The position numbers and the translations under genes were made by a program. DNA of 64,000 nucleotides from the IMG/VR virus record IMGVR_UViG_3300012001_000010, positions 6,356-70,355 of that record, one strand, 5' to 3'. The notes below the pieces were generated by a model. The model saw nothing but the letters and a program-made list of their open reading frames with translations, was not told the origin of the DNA and made no database searches. This DNA comes from a virus. This document shows positions 4,310 through 13,724 of this stretch, piece by piece. Numbering within the stretch: the stretch's first letter is position 1; every line of letters begins with the position of its first letter.

Positions 4310-5944
4310 TTAGGTGAATAGCTGTCGCTGCTTAGGGACCGCAGTCCGTTGCAGGTCGATGATCGCGGCTGTCGCGGACTCGACCGACATCGAGCGGGCG
4401 ATGTCAGTGTTAACGCCGCACATGAGCATCGCCTTGACCTGATTCATCGAAGCTAAGCCTTCTTTTTTGCGCTTCATGAGCTTGTCGATCATCTTCGACG
4501 CTCCCCATTTTGACAGGCCCTCTGGCGTGTCGATCCCAAGCGACCGAAGCATTCCAGTCTGCTTATCGCTCGCCGGATTCGTCCCCCTCTTGTCGAGGTC
4601 GTACTTCCTGTTGAGGTTGATATCAAGGAGCTTCGAGACGCCGATCGGGTCGTACTCCAGCGCCGCATAAGTCTCCTCGCGGCCGGTGAGCGTGACCATG
4701 AATTTCGTGCGAGTCCTAATGATCCGCTCAGCCTCCTCGATCATCTCCAGCGGGTCGACATCGACCGCGCACTTCGAGGCGAGTTCCCGCGCGACCGCGA
4801 AGACTTCCTCGTCGATCGAGCCGTCGTCGAATAGCTCGACCGTAGTACATAGGTCTTTGTTCTCCTTGTCGGTCTGCCAATCGAAGTCGATGACCAGGCA
4901 TTCCGTCTTGCCGGTCGACGGGCATGGCCGCGTGCCGCGACCGACCATCTGCGTGTAGCGATATTGCTGTTTCGTCGGCCTAAGTATCCCGACCGCCTCG
5001 ATTTTCGGGCAGTCCCAGCCTTCGACGAGAAGTTCACAGCACACAATGATTTGATATTCGTTCGCGTTAAATGCGTCGAGGTTAGCCTTTCGTTCGGCCT
5101 TGGTCATGCCGAAGGCCCCGCCAGTCCCGGCGACATATCGAGTTGGTGTCCCAAGGTCGGTGCAGACCTGTGCGAAGGCCATCGCCGACCCAACATCAGG
5201 TGTGAAGACGACGGCGGGCTTCTCGCCCACTTCCTTAATGAACCCACGCGCGAGGGCTTCGATCCGGGGGCCGATACGCTCCTCAAGTTCGCCGTTAGAT
5301 AGGTCGCCGCCGAACATCTTGATCCCGCGTAAATCGACGGAGACACGGCATTCTCGCGTCTTTATCGGCACGAGCCACCGAGACTGGATCGCCCTACGTA
5401 AGCCGTACTGATACGCTTTCGTCTTGAATCGGGCACCGAGGTTGCGTTCGTCGCCGCGTTTCGGCGTGGCGGTGATCCCGATCAGCCAGTAGTCGCGGAA
5501 CCAATTCAGAGTCTTCGTGTAGGAGTTAGCCAAAGCCCTATGGCACTCGTCGATGATAATGAGTCCGAAGGAATCAGGTGCCCACCTCATGAGCCTGTCG
5601 TCCTGTAAGGTCTGAATCGACCCGACGACGACATCGGGATGGCCGAGCGCGGCGACGTGGCTCCGTGCGTCTCGGGAACCCATCTCGACCGCGCACGAGA
5701 AGCCGAACGCCGTCATCGTGCTCGCGGCCTGATCTATTAACTGCTCTCTATGAGCCACAAATAGGGTCGGCTTGTCGTGTTTATCTTTTGCGTATTCAAC
5801 GCACATCCCGGCAAGTACGGTCTTGCCCGACCCCGTAGGCATCACGACAAGCGTTGATTCGGTTTTACCGCTCTCGAATTCGCGGAATGCCGCGTCTCGG
5901 GCCTCAATTTGGTAGTCACGATACACGATTCCGTGGTCGTTCAT
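4310..5944 (-). CDS. SF2 DEAD/DEAH-box helicase
   Basis: MPTGSGKT, DECH, TAT, EGWD, QMVGRGTR motifs. Confidence 0.93.
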   Translation of the reverse strand: MNDHGIVYRDYQIEARDAAFREFESGKTESTLVVMPTGSGKTVLAGMCVEYAKDKHDKPTLFVAHREQLIDQAASTMTAFGFSCAVEMGSRDARSHVAALGHPDVVVGSIQTLQDDRLMRWAPDSFGLIIIDECHRALANSYTKTLNWFRDYWLIGITATPKRGDERNLGARFKTKAYQYGLRRAIQSRWLVPIKTRECRVSVDLRGIKMFGGDLSNGELEERIGPRIEALARGFIKEVGEKPAVVFTPDVGSAMAFAQVCTDLGTPTRYVAGTGGAFGMTKAERKANLDAFNANEYQIIVCCELLVEGWDCPKIEAVGILRPTKQQYRYTQMVGRGTRPCPSTGKTECLVIDFDWQTDKENKDLCTTVELFDDGSIDEEVFAVARELASKCAVDVDPLEMIEEAERIIRTRTKFMVTLTGREETYAALEYDPIGVSKLLDINLNRKYDLDKRGTNPASDKQTGMLRSLGIDTPEGLSKWGASKMIDKLMKRKKEGLASMNQVKAMLMCGVNTDIARSMSVESATAAIIDLQRTAVPKQRQLFT

Positions 5945-5991
5945 TTATCGCCCTCGTCTTAAACCGGGGCATCCTTGCCCCGTGGTGCCGA

Positions 5992-7152
5992 TCAAAGGTA
6001 GACTTCGAGCTTGATCTGATAGCACGCGCCGTTACATTTTGTGCATTTGACGCCGAGCGAGTGGCCGCCGGTCCCCTTGCAGTCGCCGCAGATAAGCCAA
6101 TCCTTCGGGTGGCTTGATGAGATGATCCGGGTGGCGAGCCAGTAGAACGGGCCGAGGATTCCGCCCTTCTTCGCGGCGGCTACATAGTTCTTAACCTTGG
6201 TGCGGAAGACGTGACGCGGCTCCACGATCGAGCGGAAGAGGATCGCGTCGGCCTTGAATTTGGCGTCGTCGCCGAGCATCGCGGCCTTCTCTCCGCAGTA
6301 AGTCGCATACCATTCGTCGTCAGTGAGGTCGACCTGCTTGACCGCCTTCGCGGCGGCTTTCCCTTCGGCGTCATCCTTCGCCTTACTCTCGGCCTCGCTC
6401 GCCTTCGGGGCCTGATCCTTCAAGATTTCCTTGATCGCGTTTTCAGCCTCCATCCCGGCCGCGACAAGGCTGACAACCTGGCCGCGTAGCTGTTCGTCCT
6501 TGATCTTGGCGATCGCAGTCATATCCTTCGACGACACGCTCATCTGCTCAAAGACTTCAAGCTGCTCGTCATTGAACGCCTTGGCGACACGGATGTCCCG
6601 CTTCGCGGCCGAGTCAGACTTACCCGTTGCCCCGGCGACCATCTCGGCGAAACCGGAGACCGCTGATTCCGTGTCAGCGTTGGTATTCGTAGTCTCTCCG
6701 TTTTCGAGCTTAGTCTTACGCTCATCGCTAGCCTTCTTCGTCGCGGCACCGCCCGCGAGTCCCTTGCCGACCATATCGGGATGTTTGGCTACGTAATGCT
6801 CGTGCCATTTCTTGATGGCTTTGAAGTGCTGATTCTTTGTGAGCGGGTTCCGCCAGAGGTTCTCGGCGATCATCGCCATTTCGGCGTCCTGGTCGTCCAT
6901 CTCGGCCATAATGTTGCACGCGATGAACTGTTCCTTGAGGACTTTCGAGACCGCATAGTGCCGGTGTCTTCCTTGGACGAGTAGATAGCGACCAGGTTCG
7001 GTCGGGTGAGGCCGGATCACGATCGCGTTATAGAGTCCTTCGACCTTGATCGAGGACGCTAGCGTTTGCGCGAACTCCTTATTGAACGAGCGATACTCCG
7101 CGTCGTTCTTCGGGATGTCGATCAGTTTGCATTCGATCAACTTGACTTCCAT
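5992..7152 (-). CDS. ParB-like N-terminal domain protein with HTH and C-terminal CxxCxGxG zinc finger
   Basis: LASSIKVEGLYNAIVIR...LVQGRHRH...AENLWRNPLT; CGDCKGTG...CTKCNG. Confidence 0.8.
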   Translation of the reverse strand: MEVKLIECKLIDIPKNDAEYRSFNKEFAQTLASSIKVEGLYNAIVIRPHPTEPGRYLLVQGRHRHYAVSKVLKEQFIACNIMAEMDDQDAEMAMIAENLWRNPLTKNQHFKAIKKWHEHYVAKHPDMVGKGLAGGAATKKASDERKTKLENGETTNTNADTESAVSGFAEMVAGATGKSDSAAKRDIRVAKAFNDEQLEVFEQMSVSSKDMTAIAKIKDEQLRGQVVSLVAAGMEAENAIKEILKDQAPKASEAESKAKDDAEGKAAAKAVKQVDLTDDEWYATYCGEKAAMLGDDAKFKADAILFRSIVEPRHVFRTKVKNYVAAAKKGGILGPFYWLATRIISSSHPKDWLICGDCKGTGGHSLGVKCTKCNGACYQIKLEVYL

Positions 7153-8241: not shown

Positions 8242-8678
8242 GGCTCTAAATTCAACTCTCTAAGCTGCTTAAGGAACCATTTGATTCCAACTCGACCTCC
8301 GCGAGCTATTCCTATTCCTGTTGTTCCGTGCATTTTTCTGTCCTCATGGTTAAGTTTGCTTGTCTTACAGCTAAGATTGCTTGGAATATTATTGGTTTGA
8401 TTACCATCGTTATGGCATGTGTCAAGTCCAAGCCGTCGCGGTCCATGAAATGCTTCGTAAACTACTTGGTGAATCCTCTTTGATACGCTTTTCCCTTCTC
8501 TTTGCATTCCGACAATAAGATAGCCGTTCGTATCCGGTGATGGTTTTAATGTTCGCCATTCGTTTGAAAGGCCCCATCTTTTCCCAAATCCAGCCTGTTT
8601 TAGACAACTTTGGACTTCCCCGTCTGATGTGGCTCGATATCCAGGCCACCCAGGTATGTCTCGGTATTCTATTTCCAT
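8238..8678 (-). CDS. NUMOD4-motif HNH homing endonuclease
   Basis: YRDIPGWPGYRATSDGEV N-terminus; IHQVVYEAF...CHNDGNQTNN...NL HNH; AT-richer than flanks. Confidence 0.88.
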   Translation of the reverse strand: MEIEYRDIPGWPGYRATSDGEVQSCLKQAGFGKRWGLSNEWRTLKPSPDTNGYLIVGMQREGKSVSKRIHQVVYEAFHGPRRLGLDTCHNDGNQTNNIPSNLSCKTSKLNHEDRKMHGTTGIGIARGGRVGIKWFLKQLRELNLEP

Positions 8679-10549: not shown

Positions 10550-10942
10550 ATGGCGAAAAAGACGGTCCCGAAGGTTAGGGCAATCCCGAAGGGATTAGCC
10601 CGAGCGTTGATCGAGCGTAAGGCGAGCGCTGATTCTGAGGCGCTGCTTAATGACCTGATCGACGTTTGGGGTGGGACTCGTCGCCTCGCGTTGGATATCC
10701 ACGGCGAGTTCCAGAAGGCGGCAGCGGGCGGCATGACCCGGCAGCGCATTCTGGAAATGATGCAGCGGCTCATCATGAACAACACGAATCACGAGATTGG
10801 CCGGTCTGCCCGCCCTTCGGACTTGACCGATGATGAGCTTGAAACTGTGGCGATGTCTTACATGAAAAAGGTCTCGGGCCATGCCGAAACAACCGATATC
10901 CCCGATCCCGGACCCCCTTCCCCGGAGGAGGGGGAGTGGTAA
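10550..10942 (+). CDS. Putative terminase small subunit / hypothetical protein
   Basis: Helical 130-aa ORF with GAGGGGG RBS directly upstream of terL; PSDLTDDEL C-terminal motif. Confidence 0.5.
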   Translation: MAKKTVPKVRAIPKGLARALIERKASADSEALLNDLIDVWGGTRRLALDIHGEFQKAAAGGMTRQRILEMMQRLIMNNTNHEIGRSARPSDLTDDELETVAMSYMKKVSGHAETTDIPDPGPPSPEEGEW

Positions 10943-13724
10943 GCGGGTTATCACTGGGTCGGTCGCGCCGATCATGTCGCCTCGGGACATCTACCGGCTC
11001 ACGAACCCGATCCTCGACGACGAGCTTGACGACATTAGGGCGAGCATCCCTCCTGTCTTTGACGACCCGACCCGTCTAACCGTCGTCGAGAGTGAGGAGC
11101 TTAAGGGCGTCCTGTACGAGCTTGCCTCGCGACAGAGCGAGTCGCTGAAGATATTCCAGCCGATGATTGAGCAGGAGCGGTTCTTCGCTTCGGACTCTTC
11201 GGAGCGGATCGCGCTCGGCGGTAATCGCGGCGGCAAGACTACGGCGACGGTGATCGAGATCGCCAGGGCGGTGACGGGGCAAGACCCGCACGACAAATAC
11301 CCCAAGACTGATGGCCGCTGTATTCTCGTCGGCAAAGACTTGACGCATTGCTCGAAGGTGTTTTATCAAAAACTCTTCAAGGCGGGTGCGTTCAAGATCA
11401 TCAAGGATGAATTGACAGAGGAATGGCGTACATACAACCCGAACGATCCCGCCGACAAGGCTCGGGCGCATGAGGCGAAGAAAGCTCCAGCTTTGATCCC
11501 GTCGCGGTTTTATGACTTTAAGAAGATCGCATGGGAAAATAAAAAGGATGAAATCCCTAAGACGATCCCGTTAAAGAACGGCTGGACTATCCACTGCTTT
11601 TCGTCGCTCGGTGCCCCGCCGCAGGGGTGGAATGTGGATATGGTCGCGTTCGACGAGGAGATCGAGCATCCCTTGTGGTATCCCGAGATGTCGGCCCGGC
11701 TCCTGGACAACCGCGTTGAAGACCCGGTGACAGGAAAGGTTCGATCGGGGAAGTTCCTCTGGTCGGCCACGCCACAGGCCGGGACTCAGCAACTCTACGA
11801 CCTTAAGGTGCGCGGCGACGAACTGATCGGCGATCCTTCTCCGGCGATCCAGATTTTCGAGTTCGGCATGTTAGACAACCAATGGGTGTCAGACACAGCC
11901 AAAGCCGAGTTCATCGCAAAGTTCCGCGACAATGAGGACGAGATTAACGTCCGTGTCTACGGCAAGTTCGCGCTGTTAGGTACCCGAGTCTACAGCGAGT
12001 TTATGCCGAAGGGCGTTCATGGGATGGCTGACATGCCGATCCCGGAGGACTGGACGAGCTACGCGATCATCGACCCAGGCAGACAGGTTTGCGCAGTCCT
12101 ATTTATCGCGGTCCCACCTCCTCACAGCGAATGGGCTGGTCGGAAGATTGTCTACGACGAGCTTTACATAAAGAAATGTAACGCTAAGATATTCGCCGAG
12201 ACGTTTGTGCGAAGAGTTAATGGTAGGCCGATCGAATACGCAATCATTGACCATCGCGCGGGACGAATCACAGAGATTGGGTCGGGCTTGACTCACGAGG
12301 AACAATACTCGCGGGCGCTCAAGGAGGCGAACTTTAAGTTCGAGAAGGGCGGCACGACGTTCGTGTGGTCGAGCGACGACGTTAAGGCGGGGATCGAATC
12401 GGTGCGGAACGCCTTACACATCATTGATGGGCGCAGCGAGCTTGTTGTGATCCCCGACAAGACGAAACACTTGCTCTGGGAGATCGAGCGGTATAGCTAC
12501 CGTAAGCTCCCGAGCGGCGTCGTTACCGACGAACCGATCAAGCTAAACGACCATGCGTGCTTTGTCGCCGGGACTCAAGTTCTCACCAAGAGGGGCCAAT
12601 TGGCGATCGAGCTTGTCCGTGTCGGCGATATGGCGTGGACAAGGGGTGGATGGAGGAAGGTCGTGGACGCGGCCTGTACGGCTCGCAACGCGAAGGTTAT
12701 GCGGGTGGAGTTCAGCGACGGTCGATCTTTGACCGGAACGTCAAATCATCCAATATTCGTTGATGGCGTTGGGTACATATCCCTTGGTGAGTTGCGTCAA
12801 GGCGACGTGCTCGTGAATCCTTCGGGAGATATCCAATGCCGGGACCAGTCGCAAAGAAAAGTATCGCGATCATCCATAACGGGATCACTTTCAGGAGATA
12901 CCCGGATTCGCCGCGAAGGAGCGATCGTGTCTATTTCAAGCCGCCAACTCGATTGTCGGCACAAGGGGTCGGTCGCTTGCATCAGGAGGTATGGAAAGAC
13001 GCGAACGGCCCGATTCCTGAAGGATTCCACATCCACCACGTTGACGAGAATCCGCTCAATAATTCGATCGAGAATCTTGAGTGCAAGCCTGAATCCGAGC
13101 ATTTATCAGATCACAACCGGAACGTATCCGCTGAACGATCCGATAATCGTCTCGTTCAGCTTGAGCGGATTCGGCCACTTTCCGCCGACTGGCACTCATC
13201 CAAGGAAGGAACCGATTGGCACAGTAAAAACTCGATCTCTATGTGGAAGAATCGGGAATTTTCTGAGCGAAAGTGCGATCACTGCGGCGAGTCATATTCG
13301 TCTCGCGATCGCAAGGCTGCGGGGTTCTGCTCGAACAAATGCAAGTCGGCCGCTCGCCGAGCTTCCGGCGTCGATAACGTCACTCGACCTTGCGGGGTTT
13401 GCGGAAAGCCATTCTCAGTCAACAGATATTCAAAGGTCCGACACTGTTCCCTGTCATGTGGTGTCCGTTCACACCGAAGCGGGCCGTCATCCGGTTTACA
13501 ACCTAACGGTATCGGATCGGCATGAGTATTTCGCGAACGGAATTCTCGTGTCGAATTGCGATTGCCTACGTTACGCCTGCATGGCAAAACTCCGATATGT
13601 TCGACCGAGGAAGCGGAAGGAAAAGCCGGGATACACGACGGTTTGCCTCGAACGGAAGAAGCAGCGGGCGAAGGAGAAGGCGAAAGAGGAATCGGGCTGG
13701 GGAGGCTCCTATAAAGTTGGGTAA
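10881..13724 (+). CDS. terL: Terminase large subunit containing an intein
   Basis: Walker A GGNRGGKT, Walker B VAFDEE, SATP, nuclease IIDPG and NDHA|CD motif split by the intein. Confidence 0.92.
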   Translation: MPKQPISPIPDPLPRRRGSGKRVITGSVAPIMSPRDIYRLTNPILDDELDDIRASIPPVFDDPTRLTVVESEELKGVLYELASRQSESLKIFQPMIEQERFFASDSSERIALGGNRGGKTTATVIEIARAVTGQDPHDKYPKTDGRCILVGKDLTHCSKVFYQKLFKAGAFKIIKDELTEEWRTYNPNDPADKARAHEAKKAPALIPSRFYDFKKIAWENKKDEIPKTIPLKNGWTIHCFSSLGAPPQGWNVDMVAFDEEIEHPLWYPEMSARLLDNRVEDPVTGKVRSGKFLWSATPQAGTQQLYDLKVRGDELIGDPSPAIQIFEFGMLDNQWVSDTAKAEFIAKFRDNEDEINVRVYGKFALLGTRVYSEFMPKGVHGMADMPIPEDWTSYAIIDPGRQVCAVLFIAVPPPHSEWAGRKIVYDELYIKKCNAKIFAETFVRRVNGRPIEYAIIDHRAGRITEIGSGLTHEEQYSRALKEANFKFEKGGTTFVWSSDDVKAGIESVRNALHIIDGRSELVVIPDKTKHLLWEIERYSYRKLPSGVVTDEPIKLNDHACFVAGTQVLTKRGQLAIELVRVGDMAWTRGGWRKVVDAACTARNAKVMRVEFSDGRSLTGTSNHPIFVDGVGYISLGELRQGDVLVNPSGDIQCRDQSQRKVSRSSITGSLSGDTRIRREGAIVSISSRQLDCRHKGSVACIRRYGKTRTARFLKDSTSTTLTRIRSIIRSRILSASLNPSIYQITTGTYPLNDPIIVSFSLSGFGHFPPTGTHPRKEPIGTVKTRSLCGRIGNFLSESAITAASHIRLAIARLRGSARTNASRPLAELPASITSLDLAGFAESHSQSTDIQRSDTVPCHVVSVHTEAGRHPVYNLTVSDRHEYFANGILVSNCDCLRYACMAKLRYVRPRKRKEKPGYTTVCLERKKQRAKEKAKEESGWGGSYKVG
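12558..13556 (+). mobile_element. Intein (333 aa) in terL
   Basis: Block A CFVAGTQV, block B TGTSNHPIF, block F/G VYNLTVSDRHEYFANGILVSN followed by +1 Cys. Confidence 0.93.
12836..13525 (+). CDS. HNH homing endonuclease with C-terminal Zn-finger repeats, nested out of frame in the intein
   Basis: LHQEVWKDANGPIPEGFHIHHVDENPLNNSIENLE...H; CDHCG...FCSNKC and CGVCG...CSLSC; GGGAGA RBS 6 nt upstream of ATG. Confidence 0.9.
   Translation: MPGPVAKKSIAIIHNGITFRRYPDSPRRSDRVYFKPPTRLSAQGVGRLHQEVWKDANGPIPEGFHIHHVDENPLNNSIENLECKPESEHLSDHNRNVSAERSDNRLVQLERIRPLSADWHSSKEGTDWHSKNSISMWKNREFSERKCDHCGESYSSRDRKAAGFCSNKCKSAARRASGVDNVTRPCGVCGKPFSVNRYSKVRHCSLSCGVRSHRSGPSSGLQPNGIGSA

Follow-up and report, generated by a model that had tools for sequence, protein, structure and literature searches.

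The 64,000-nucleotide stretch of viral DNA analysed here, hereafter the window, comes from a virus record of 70,355 bp rated complete by CheckV (IMG/VR record IMGVR_UViG_3300012001_000010, positions 6,356 to 70,355) and has a G+C content of 56%. It contains a gene for the large terminase subunit, terL, whose open reading frame (ORF) is interrupted by an intein; within the intein, on the same strand and in a different reading frame, lies a second ORF coding for an HNH endonuclease (Table 1). The host gene was identified by a weak Pfam match to Terminase_6N together with 573 TerL-like homologues, Planctomycetes being among the few that are named. The start of terL is uncertain, either the ATG at 10881 or that at 10974, the latter being used in the 916-amino-acid database call P0121.

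The intein is inserted in the TerL sequence KLNDHA/CDCLRYA (the slash marks the splice junction), with a Cys codon at 12558-12560 and an Asn codon at 13554-13556 as its boundaries, the latter within VSN/C. Its product matches the Pfam family Intein_splicing (PF14890) with 39.5 bits over a cut-off of 35.8, and PT-HINT and Hint_2 are matched as well. The hallmarks of class 1 inteins are present: the first residue is Cys, as in 84 of the 84 inteins of the family described below; block B has the TxxH form (TSNH, residues 61-64), shared by 80 of the 84; and the last residue is Asn, again in all 84, followed at position +1 by Cys in 73, Ser in 10 and Thr in one. His64 is invariant in the 64-sequence intein alignment (A2), which includes 63 of the 79 related inteins that were available. 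The 999-bp insert is very probably a class-1-type intein with a Hint core of about 125 amino acids, broken at the position that an endonuclease usually occupies. Splicing would be expected from the intact motifs and from terL being an essential gene.

The codons of the nested ORF begin two bases after those of terL, and across its whole length the terL frame is the only other frame free of stop codons. The ORF product matches HNH_3 (PF13392) with 55.2 bits (cut-off 24.8, E 5.4e-15). It comprises an HNH motif at residues 48-93, two Cys4 zinc ribbons (C147/C150/C165/C169 and C186/C189/C204/C208) and a tail, residues 209-229, that overlaps intein block F. In an alignment of 50 HNH homologues including that of the window (A1, for which 49 of the 120 listed matches were used), H67, H68, N76, N80, H89, H93 and the eight Cys are invariant, and the protein of the window retains 30 of the 30 invariant residues. 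The HNH frame does not open until 12791, and the stop codon immediately before that position therefore leaves no room for a long N-terminal extension of the protein in this frame.

A sequence-only reading of this DNA had described a terL interrupted by a 333-amino-acid intein with complete splicing blocks, a linker of about 200 residues rich in Ser, Thr, Ile and Arg without recognisable motif and, wholly inside the intein, a 229-amino-acid HNH endonuclease with zinc-finger repeats, its own GGGAGA and its own ATG, both frames staying free of stops. All of its coordinates proved correct, and the Pfam matches, a frame check, the composition of the linker (32 Ser, 25 Arg, 20 Ile and 20 Thr out of 205 residues) and its predicted disorder agree with the description.

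In the AlphaFold2 model of the intein two β-rich Hint lobes are formed by residues 1-90 and 298-333, while the intervening 207 or so residues (91-297) lack secondary structure and have a pLDDT (the predicted score of the local distance difference test) of 43-58. The HNH model has a mean pLDDT of 92.4, with low confidence only in the last 15 or so residues, which overlap intein block F. The structured parts hardly overlap on the DNA: the N-terminal Hint lobe ends at about 12827 and HNH begins at 12836, the codon for the last zinc-binding Cys is at 13457 and the C-terminal Hint lobe starts at about 13449. The linker codons in all likelihood have no protein-level function of their own.

Table 1. 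Features of the terL intein and its nested HNH gene in the window
Feature	Positions	Strand	Size and remarks
terL precursor ORF (large terminase with its intein)	10881..13724	+	947 amino acids
Intein	12558..13556	+	333 amino acids, 999 nucleotides; C1, TSNH block B, C-terminal SN then Cys
N-terminal Hint splicing lobe	12558..12827	+	intein residues 1-90; pLDDT 87-98
Intein-frame linker	12828..13448	+	intein residues ~91-297; predicted disordered; off-frame shadow of the HNH gene
C-terminal Hint splicing lobe, blocks F/G	13449..13556	+	intein residues 298-333; pLDDT 95-98
TerL C-extein	13557..13724	+	55 amino acids plus stop; first residue is the +1 Cys
HNH_3 endonuclease ORF	12836..13525	+	229 amino acids; frame +2 of terL, wholly inside the intein
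Shine-Dalgarno-like GGGAGA	12824..12829	+	6 nucleotides before the HNH ATG
Stop codon in the HNH frame	12788..12790	+	upstream of the HNH ATG
TTGGGTACATAT, copy of TTGGGTA.AT	12769..12780	+	67 nucleotides upstream of the HNH ATG; encodes intein GVGYIS

The same layout recurs in many relatives. A tblastn search of GenBank phages with the HNH protein gave matches inside the annotated, contiguous terL coding sequences of four phages, always with the identical frame offset: Tetrasphaera phage TJE1, Acinetobacter phage Highwayman, Clostridium phage phiCDHM19 and a Rhodobacteraceae phage. Used as a single query against viral contigs, the HNH protein retrieved no loci, and a profile of alignment A1 was needed. 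With this profile at least 361 confirmed stretches were found in IMG/VR; the best 80 were retained, 75 of them nested, and a search of genome contigs gave five loci (Chloroflexota, Streptomyces, Opitutae and Dehalococcoidales). Among the 94 loci, including that of the window, frame HNH+1 is open over the entire HNH gene within an ORF of 2.2-2.6 kb in 85, and frame HNH+2 in none. These 85 nested loci are the window, five GenBank phage loci, 75 IMG/VR contigs and four genome contigs. In 84 of them an intein running from C1 to [HS]N/[CST] is placed at the common extein site [DN][DN]H(x)/C-D[AS]xRY. Moreover, 83 of the 85 nested HNH ORFs have a start codon of their own (ATG, GTG or TTG) a few codons past an in-frame stop, many with a Shine-Dalgarno-like motif; in L029 and L058 no HNH start codon was found.

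The annotation of these loci varies. In the GenBank entries of TJE1 (L001), Highwayman (L002), phiCDHM19 (L004) and L005 terL is one long coding sequence and the nested HNH ORF is unannotated; the record of phiCD119 (L007) divides the region into two separate genes, 'ter2' and 'hypothetical protein'. At about 5900-6960 in Vibrio phages 1.245.O, 1.238.A and 1.238.B (MG592610 and others), distant HNH homologues with 24% identity to the HNH of TJE1 underlie features annotated as 'hedgehog/hint domain protein' and 'terminase large subunit'; they probably belong to the same kind as well, as members or as split forms.

The terL frame contains no stop in 84 of 84 nested HNH genes, whose G+C contents range from 0.29 to 0.67. 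Synonymous permutation of the nested genes gives a mean expectation of 2.4 terL-frame stops per gene and a median probability of 0.03 for finding none, and all eight free-standing HNH homologues have 3-12 stops in the equivalent frame. Identities at HNH codon positions 1, 2 and 3 are.53,.56 and.33 among 3486 nested pairs and.54,.59 and.34 among free-standing genes, which is the same signature. Amino acid identity of the linker frame is.205, compared with.22 for the virtual +1 frame of the free-standing genes. In the two unsaturated pairs the HNH frame has a ratio of non-synonymous to synonymous substitution (dN/dS) of 0.28 and 0.12, compared with 0.93 and 1.90 for the linker frame, as the sequence-only reading had expected of a gene under purifying selection overlying a linker that only avoids stops. 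L006, whose HNH is partial, and L007, a fragmented older sequence, were excluded from the codon analyses. Judged from the codon-position identities and the dN/dS of these two pairs, purifying selection acts on the HNH frame only, and the linker of the intein frame is constrained only to avoid stop codons.

These data also bear on the explanation that HNH is truly in frame with the intein, the present frames arising from compensating indel errors or being joined by two programmed ribosomal frameshifts. The frame switches thus required would coincide with the domain borders, at about 12830 and 13455, and one protein, P0241, does join IntN and HNH in a single frame. P0241 is truncated, however, and has no IntC. 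A stop-free terL frame would be unnecessary if HNH were read in frame, nearly all loci have an HNH-frame stop shortly upstream of the start, and the same offset occurs in 84 other independent loci of differing assemblies and G+C contents. The locus reads the same, with 0 differences and 0 gaps, in a second, independent assembly of the probable source run. Because the fixed frame and the absence of stops recur across independent loci, sequencing error is excluded as a general explanation, and with it the compensating indels that the sequence-only reading had named as grounds for abandoning its interpretation; error or recoding at this locus we regard as extremely improbable. The complete in-frame intein-HNH form of canonical inteins occurs in none of the 85 nested loci, and a search among longer proteins gave two matches, neither complete; little weight attaches to a negative outcome of such a search. 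In P0242 an HNH N-terminus is followed by unrelated sequence.

A second soil sample of the same study contains a 217-nucleotide contig that matches 12400-12548 perfectly and ends 10 nucleotides before the intein site. The end of this contig may mark a branch of the assembly graph between intein-plus and intein-minus alleles, or nothing, and it was not used as evidence.

The family also exists in other states. In L010, L012, L028 and L091 terL is without intein, its target motif is intact and an HNH gene follows directly downstream, before the portal gene; in Acinetobacter phage BP10 a free-standing HNH gene is located just upstream of terS. In Lactobacillus phage CL2 (L008, KR905067, 455-2760) and in L030 terL stops after the N-terminal Hint lobe, the HNH gene comes next, and an ORF comprising the C-terminal lobe and the C-extein overlaps the 3′ end of HNH. 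In Brochothrix phage BL3 (L006, HM144386, 709-2607) gp2 consists of the N-terminal part of TerL and the N-terminal lobe, two stops follow, and gp3 consists of the C-terminal lobe and the C-terminal part of TerL; the HNH of BL3 is reduced to the last zinc ribbon. In both of these cultured phages terL appears to be split by the intein of this family, and CL2 and BL3 are candidates for natural split inteins in an essential gene.

Just upstream of the start of free-standing HNH genes, in the HNH frame, the stretches ADALRYSLC (L091, 3456-3482) and LDATRYAV (L014, 141-170) are found, with a weaker form, TTRYAL, in L010 (3477-3506). Those of L091 and L010 directly follow the terL stop; L014 begins too near the contig end to show terL. 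The stretch resembles the C-extein target motif, as if a second copy of it had been left behind as a relic, and may be a hint at movement of the homing endonuclease gene (HEG).

Decay within the family raises the alternative that the HNH gene of the window is itself a relic, the intein still splicing and the HNH, no longer expressed or active, staying open only until it decays. The last zinc ribbon of BL3, the missing start codons of L029 and L058 and the truncated P0241 show that decayed kin exist. The HNH gene of the window, however, has an ATG with a Shine-Dalgarno sequence, the full set of invariant residues and a confidently predicted fold (pLDDT 92), and the purifying selection on the HNH frame is family-wide; a relic is thus quite improbable.

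The insert is distributed sporadically. Among the best 120 TerL homologues it is absent from 115 (522-663 amino acids), including all those at 60-77% identity; the intein-less relative P0122, for example, reads KLNDHACDCLRYA uninterrupted. Within these 120 the NDHA/CD site is occupied by an intein in four proteins only, that of the window itself and, more distant, P0151, P0158 and P0182, the linkers of the latter three showing the same 'TSTT' off-frame shadow of the HIHH motif. Since 115 of the 120 best relatives are without intein, the element looks mobile. Over 76 loci, eight loci with less than 250 amino acids of upstream extein having been excluded, the 300-amino-acid upstream extein has a mean pairwise identity of.20, the Hint core of the intein one of.37 and HNH one of.39, and between L089 and L090 the values are.35,.87 and.81, respectively. 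The comparison is supportive rather than conclusive of a movement of intein and HNH between diverged terL genes as one unit.

In P0123, a TerL relative of 999 amino acids with 82% identity in the aligned part, the NDHA site is without intein, and a different intein is carried at an ATPase Walker-B-like site (NVDLV/C to SHN/CFDEE). The linker of that intein, about 300 residues rich in Ser, Leu and Arg, resembles off-frame or antisense sequence and may hide another endonuclease gene.

An alternative role for the nested protein is that of a packaging cofactor acting with TerL at the genome ends, instead of, or besides, homing, a role described for HNH proteins whose genes adjoin those of the terminase; its place within terL would then mirror this coupling of function. 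Such an association with the terminase was proposed for the nested HNH of brucellaphages in the available part of PMC4422536. The nested HNH is not a consistent terminase partner of the kind cited there (Kala et al. 2014), the insert being absent from the same 115 of 120 relatives, and for this reason the insert is not a fixed part of the packaging machine. In addition, intein and HNH are far more alike than the exteins in L089 and L090, and the family is HNH_3, seen in matches annotated as homing endonucleases, and not PF01844. Adjacency to terL would be equally expected of an HEG that targets terL. We therefore consider a packaging role unlikely.

Several observations weigh against interpreting the locus as an intein with an independently translated homing endonuclease gene. 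(i) For this locus alone, three shuffle tests put the probability of a stop-free terL frame, given the HNH codons, at 0.015-0.055, and elsewhere in the window genes can stay open off frame for as many as 185 codons. The openness of both frames on which the sequence-only reading had relied is thus real, but as evidence from a single locus only modestly improbable; because chance openness is not negligible, the case was rested on the relatives. (ii) Penultimate His is common in inteins and not obligatory; the penultimate residue in the window is Ser instead of this usual His, and the family has HN in 52 and SN in 23 of the 84 inteins. (iii) Compared with the PDB by Foldseek, the HNH model had no match at E <= 0.001, and a profile search of PDB sequences gave weak matches only, the best being I-HmuI (E 0.17). 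(iv) The pairs at 70-98.5% nucleotide identity that allowed dN/dS to be calculated are only 2 of 4141, the rest being saturated. (v) The contrast in identity between extein, intein and HNH is only suggestive of transfer, as segments of proteins evolve at different rates. (vi) Free-standing homologues adjoin terminase genes in BP10, L010, L012, L028 and L091, which fits a packaging role. (vii) The HNH tree, made by a quick method, is poorly resolved, with 11 of 86 inner branches starred; the free-standing forms require 7 changes on it compared with 7.8 with shuffled labels, and because of this poor resolution it does not decide whether nested forms gave rise to free ones or the reverse.

Taking these points into account, we consider it highly probable that the locus consists of an intein and of an overprinted, independently translated HNH homing endonuclease gene. 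The dual-coding interpretation offered by the sequence-only reading, an HEG within a mini-intein, separately translated, whose off-frame shadow is spliced out, is supported by the fixed frame and the own starts of the family, the selection on the HNH frame only, the folds and the identical second assembly. In the model that we propose, ribosomes translating terL would pass straight through the stop-free linker, and the Hint lobes would associate around the disordered loop, remove the entire insert and ligate the two parts of TerL. Other ribosomes would start internally at GGGAGA-N6-ATG (12836), yielding HNH as a free enzyme. Where an intein-less relative infects the same cell, HNH would nick or cut terL at or near the sequence coding for NDHA/CDCLRY, and recombinational repair would then copy intein and HNH jointly into the empty allele. 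Splicing, internal initiation, nuclease activity with its target, and homing are inferred here.

Transcription of HNH from within the intein may be considered as well. The match to a motif that the sequence-only reading had pointed out at 12769 is present there, and a promoter role for it is only suggestive. The motif, TTGGGTA.AT, has five copies in the window, all on the + strand (12769, 13717, 18927, 29353 and 59157), of which those at 13717, 29353 and 59157 are 26-90 nucleotides upstream of ORF starts; allowing up to two mismatches, six matches are found versus 1.75 expected. It is a candidate phage promoter motif, and the copy at 12769 might be an internal promoter for HNH. This copy may also be coincidental, because it codes for GVGY of the intein, residues found again in P0151 (GVGY) and P0158 (LGY). 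A scan for promoters of the σ70 type gave one weak site on the + strand, at 12729-12757. Two more weak HNH_3-like matches to the nested HNH exist in the same phage genome (E 8e-4 and 1e-5), at about 8346-8480 on the - strand and, outside the window, at G000:C1:3174-3368; one of them lies within an open frame of 1105 amino acids.

Out-of-frame endonucleases within inteins have precedents. The brucellaphages (Tb, Pr and relatives; Perisivirus) have a terL intein with a nested out-of-frame HNH, as reported in the available sections of Tevdoradze et al. 2015 (PMC4422536), and the GenBank record of phage Tb (NC_019446) annotates terL as 'intein present' with the nested HNH. The resemblance is close: terL as host, a contiguous intein ORF, and a zinc-ribbon HNH of about 228 amino acids on the same strand, in another frame and wholly inside the intein. 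However, the brucellaphage intein is inserted at TerL residues ~181-506 and that of the window at the C-terminal NDHA/CD motif; the frame offset is +1 in the former and +2 in the latter; the brucellaphage HNH is PF01844 with N-terminal zinc ribbons, while that of the window is PF13392 with the domain order reversed; and the Tb and window HNH proteins have short local similarity only. Because site, offset, Pfam family and domain order differ, the brucellaphage case is an independent lineage.

According to the accessible part of Gosselin et al. (bioRxiv 2025), actinophage inteins contain antisense LAGLIDADG or Vsr-like nucleases and, in a same-strand case, an endonuclease VII-like nuclease (IPR004211) 'in reading frame 3'; the arrangement is called rare and confined to PhagesDB. 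The likeness to the window extends to a same-strand out-of-frame nuclease between splicing blocks, to terL among the hosts, to a structureless linker and to the model of origin, in which a free-standing homing endonuclease invaded an intein. The actinophage nuclease is EndoVII-like, whereas the HNH of the window has no Endonuclease_7 match at E <= 0.1, the two being set apart by the description in that part of the preprint. TJE1 is the only actinophage among the matches listed (30 of 167 records; 60 of 455) and in the organism tallies. The window has a nuclease between splicing blocks, in another frame, with the intein frame open, and does not belong to the PF01844 lineage of the brucellaphages nor, going by the nuclease family, to the EndoVII-like lineage of the actinophages.

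Fractured genes, with a free-standing HEG between the halves of a split intein and a phage terminase among the hosts, are described in the available part of Dassa et al. 2009 (PMC2677866). There too the HEG is placed at the endonuclease position of the intein and overlaps the start of its C-terminal part, a layout matched exactly by CL2, L030 and BL3. The nucleases of that report are GIY-YIG and Vsr-like and that of the window is HNH_3; the host gene is broken into two ORFs there, as in L008, L030 and L006, while terL is a single ORF in the window. The model in that part of the paper does not include, as an observed state, a contiguous intein with an overprinted HEG. The cyanobacterial dnaX intein has an out-of-frame or antisense LAGLIDADG endonuclease (Gorbalenya 1998, as cited; Phillips et al., bioRxiv 10.64898/2026.09.14.751524). 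It shares with the window a homing endonuclease outside the intein frame, purifying selection and sporadic distribution, according to the accessible portions of these sources, and differs in being in a cellular gene and in its LAGLIDADG enzyme, encoded on the antisense strand per the citation in Gosselin et al. 2025. Few broadly distributed inteins with an out-of-frame endonuclease have been documented, as stated in the available part of Phillips et al. Finally, in the ShiLan-domain insertions of phage methylases (Arsenault et al. 2025, PMC11855218, as far as available) an HNH gene likewise occupies another frame of a stop-free host ORF; those inserts have no splicing domains and are thought to be retained in the protein, whereas the HNH of the window is flanked by complete Hint lobes.

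The sequence-only reading had not recognised the arrangement as a standard architecture. Non-standard it is, but already in print, for brucellaphages in 2015 (PMC4422536) and for actinophages in the 2025 preprint, as the available parts of both indicate. A limited full-text literature search found no description of the HNH_3 terL-intein lineage as a family, which is an independent, very widespread and apparently undescribed lineage of a recently recognised layout. The principle is already published; the present family adds to it by its scale, its one fixed frame, a clean signature of selection, and a series of states that comprises free, nested, fractured and decayed forms.

In the textbook layout an intein is one polypeptide whose endonuclease domain is in frame. 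The large lineage described here, with its nuclease encoded by a gene of its own that overprints the intein, departs from this layout and would add a broad, cross-phylum example of an out-of-frame intein endonuclease. Four states can be arranged in a series: a free HEG next to an intein-less terL, a contiguous intein with the HEG overprinted, a fractured terL with a split intein, and finally a split intein whose HEG has decayed. The model of splicing first and endonuclease later and the origin of split inteins are both directly concerned by this series. In practice, gene callers overlook either HNH or the true terL, and a Hint core of about 125 amino acids appears to tolerate a disordered loop of 207. 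The candidate natural split inteins of cultured phages may be of interest for protein engineering.

We tentatively suggest, while judging it somewhat less probable than the contrary, that the out-of-frame state is an evolutionarily stable third form of the partnership between intein and endonuclease and not a short-lived accident. If so, a terL mini-intein would have captured an HNH_3/zinc-ribbon HEG once, long ago, and the frame would since have stayed fixed in hundreds of phages of several bacterial phyla. Such a state could be favoured because the disordered, stop-free linker would let the Hint lobes fold, while separate translation would uncouple the dose and timing of the nuclease from those of TerL, and the lineage would repeatedly yield split terL inteins (CL2, BL3 and L030) and free HEGs beside intein-less terL genes.

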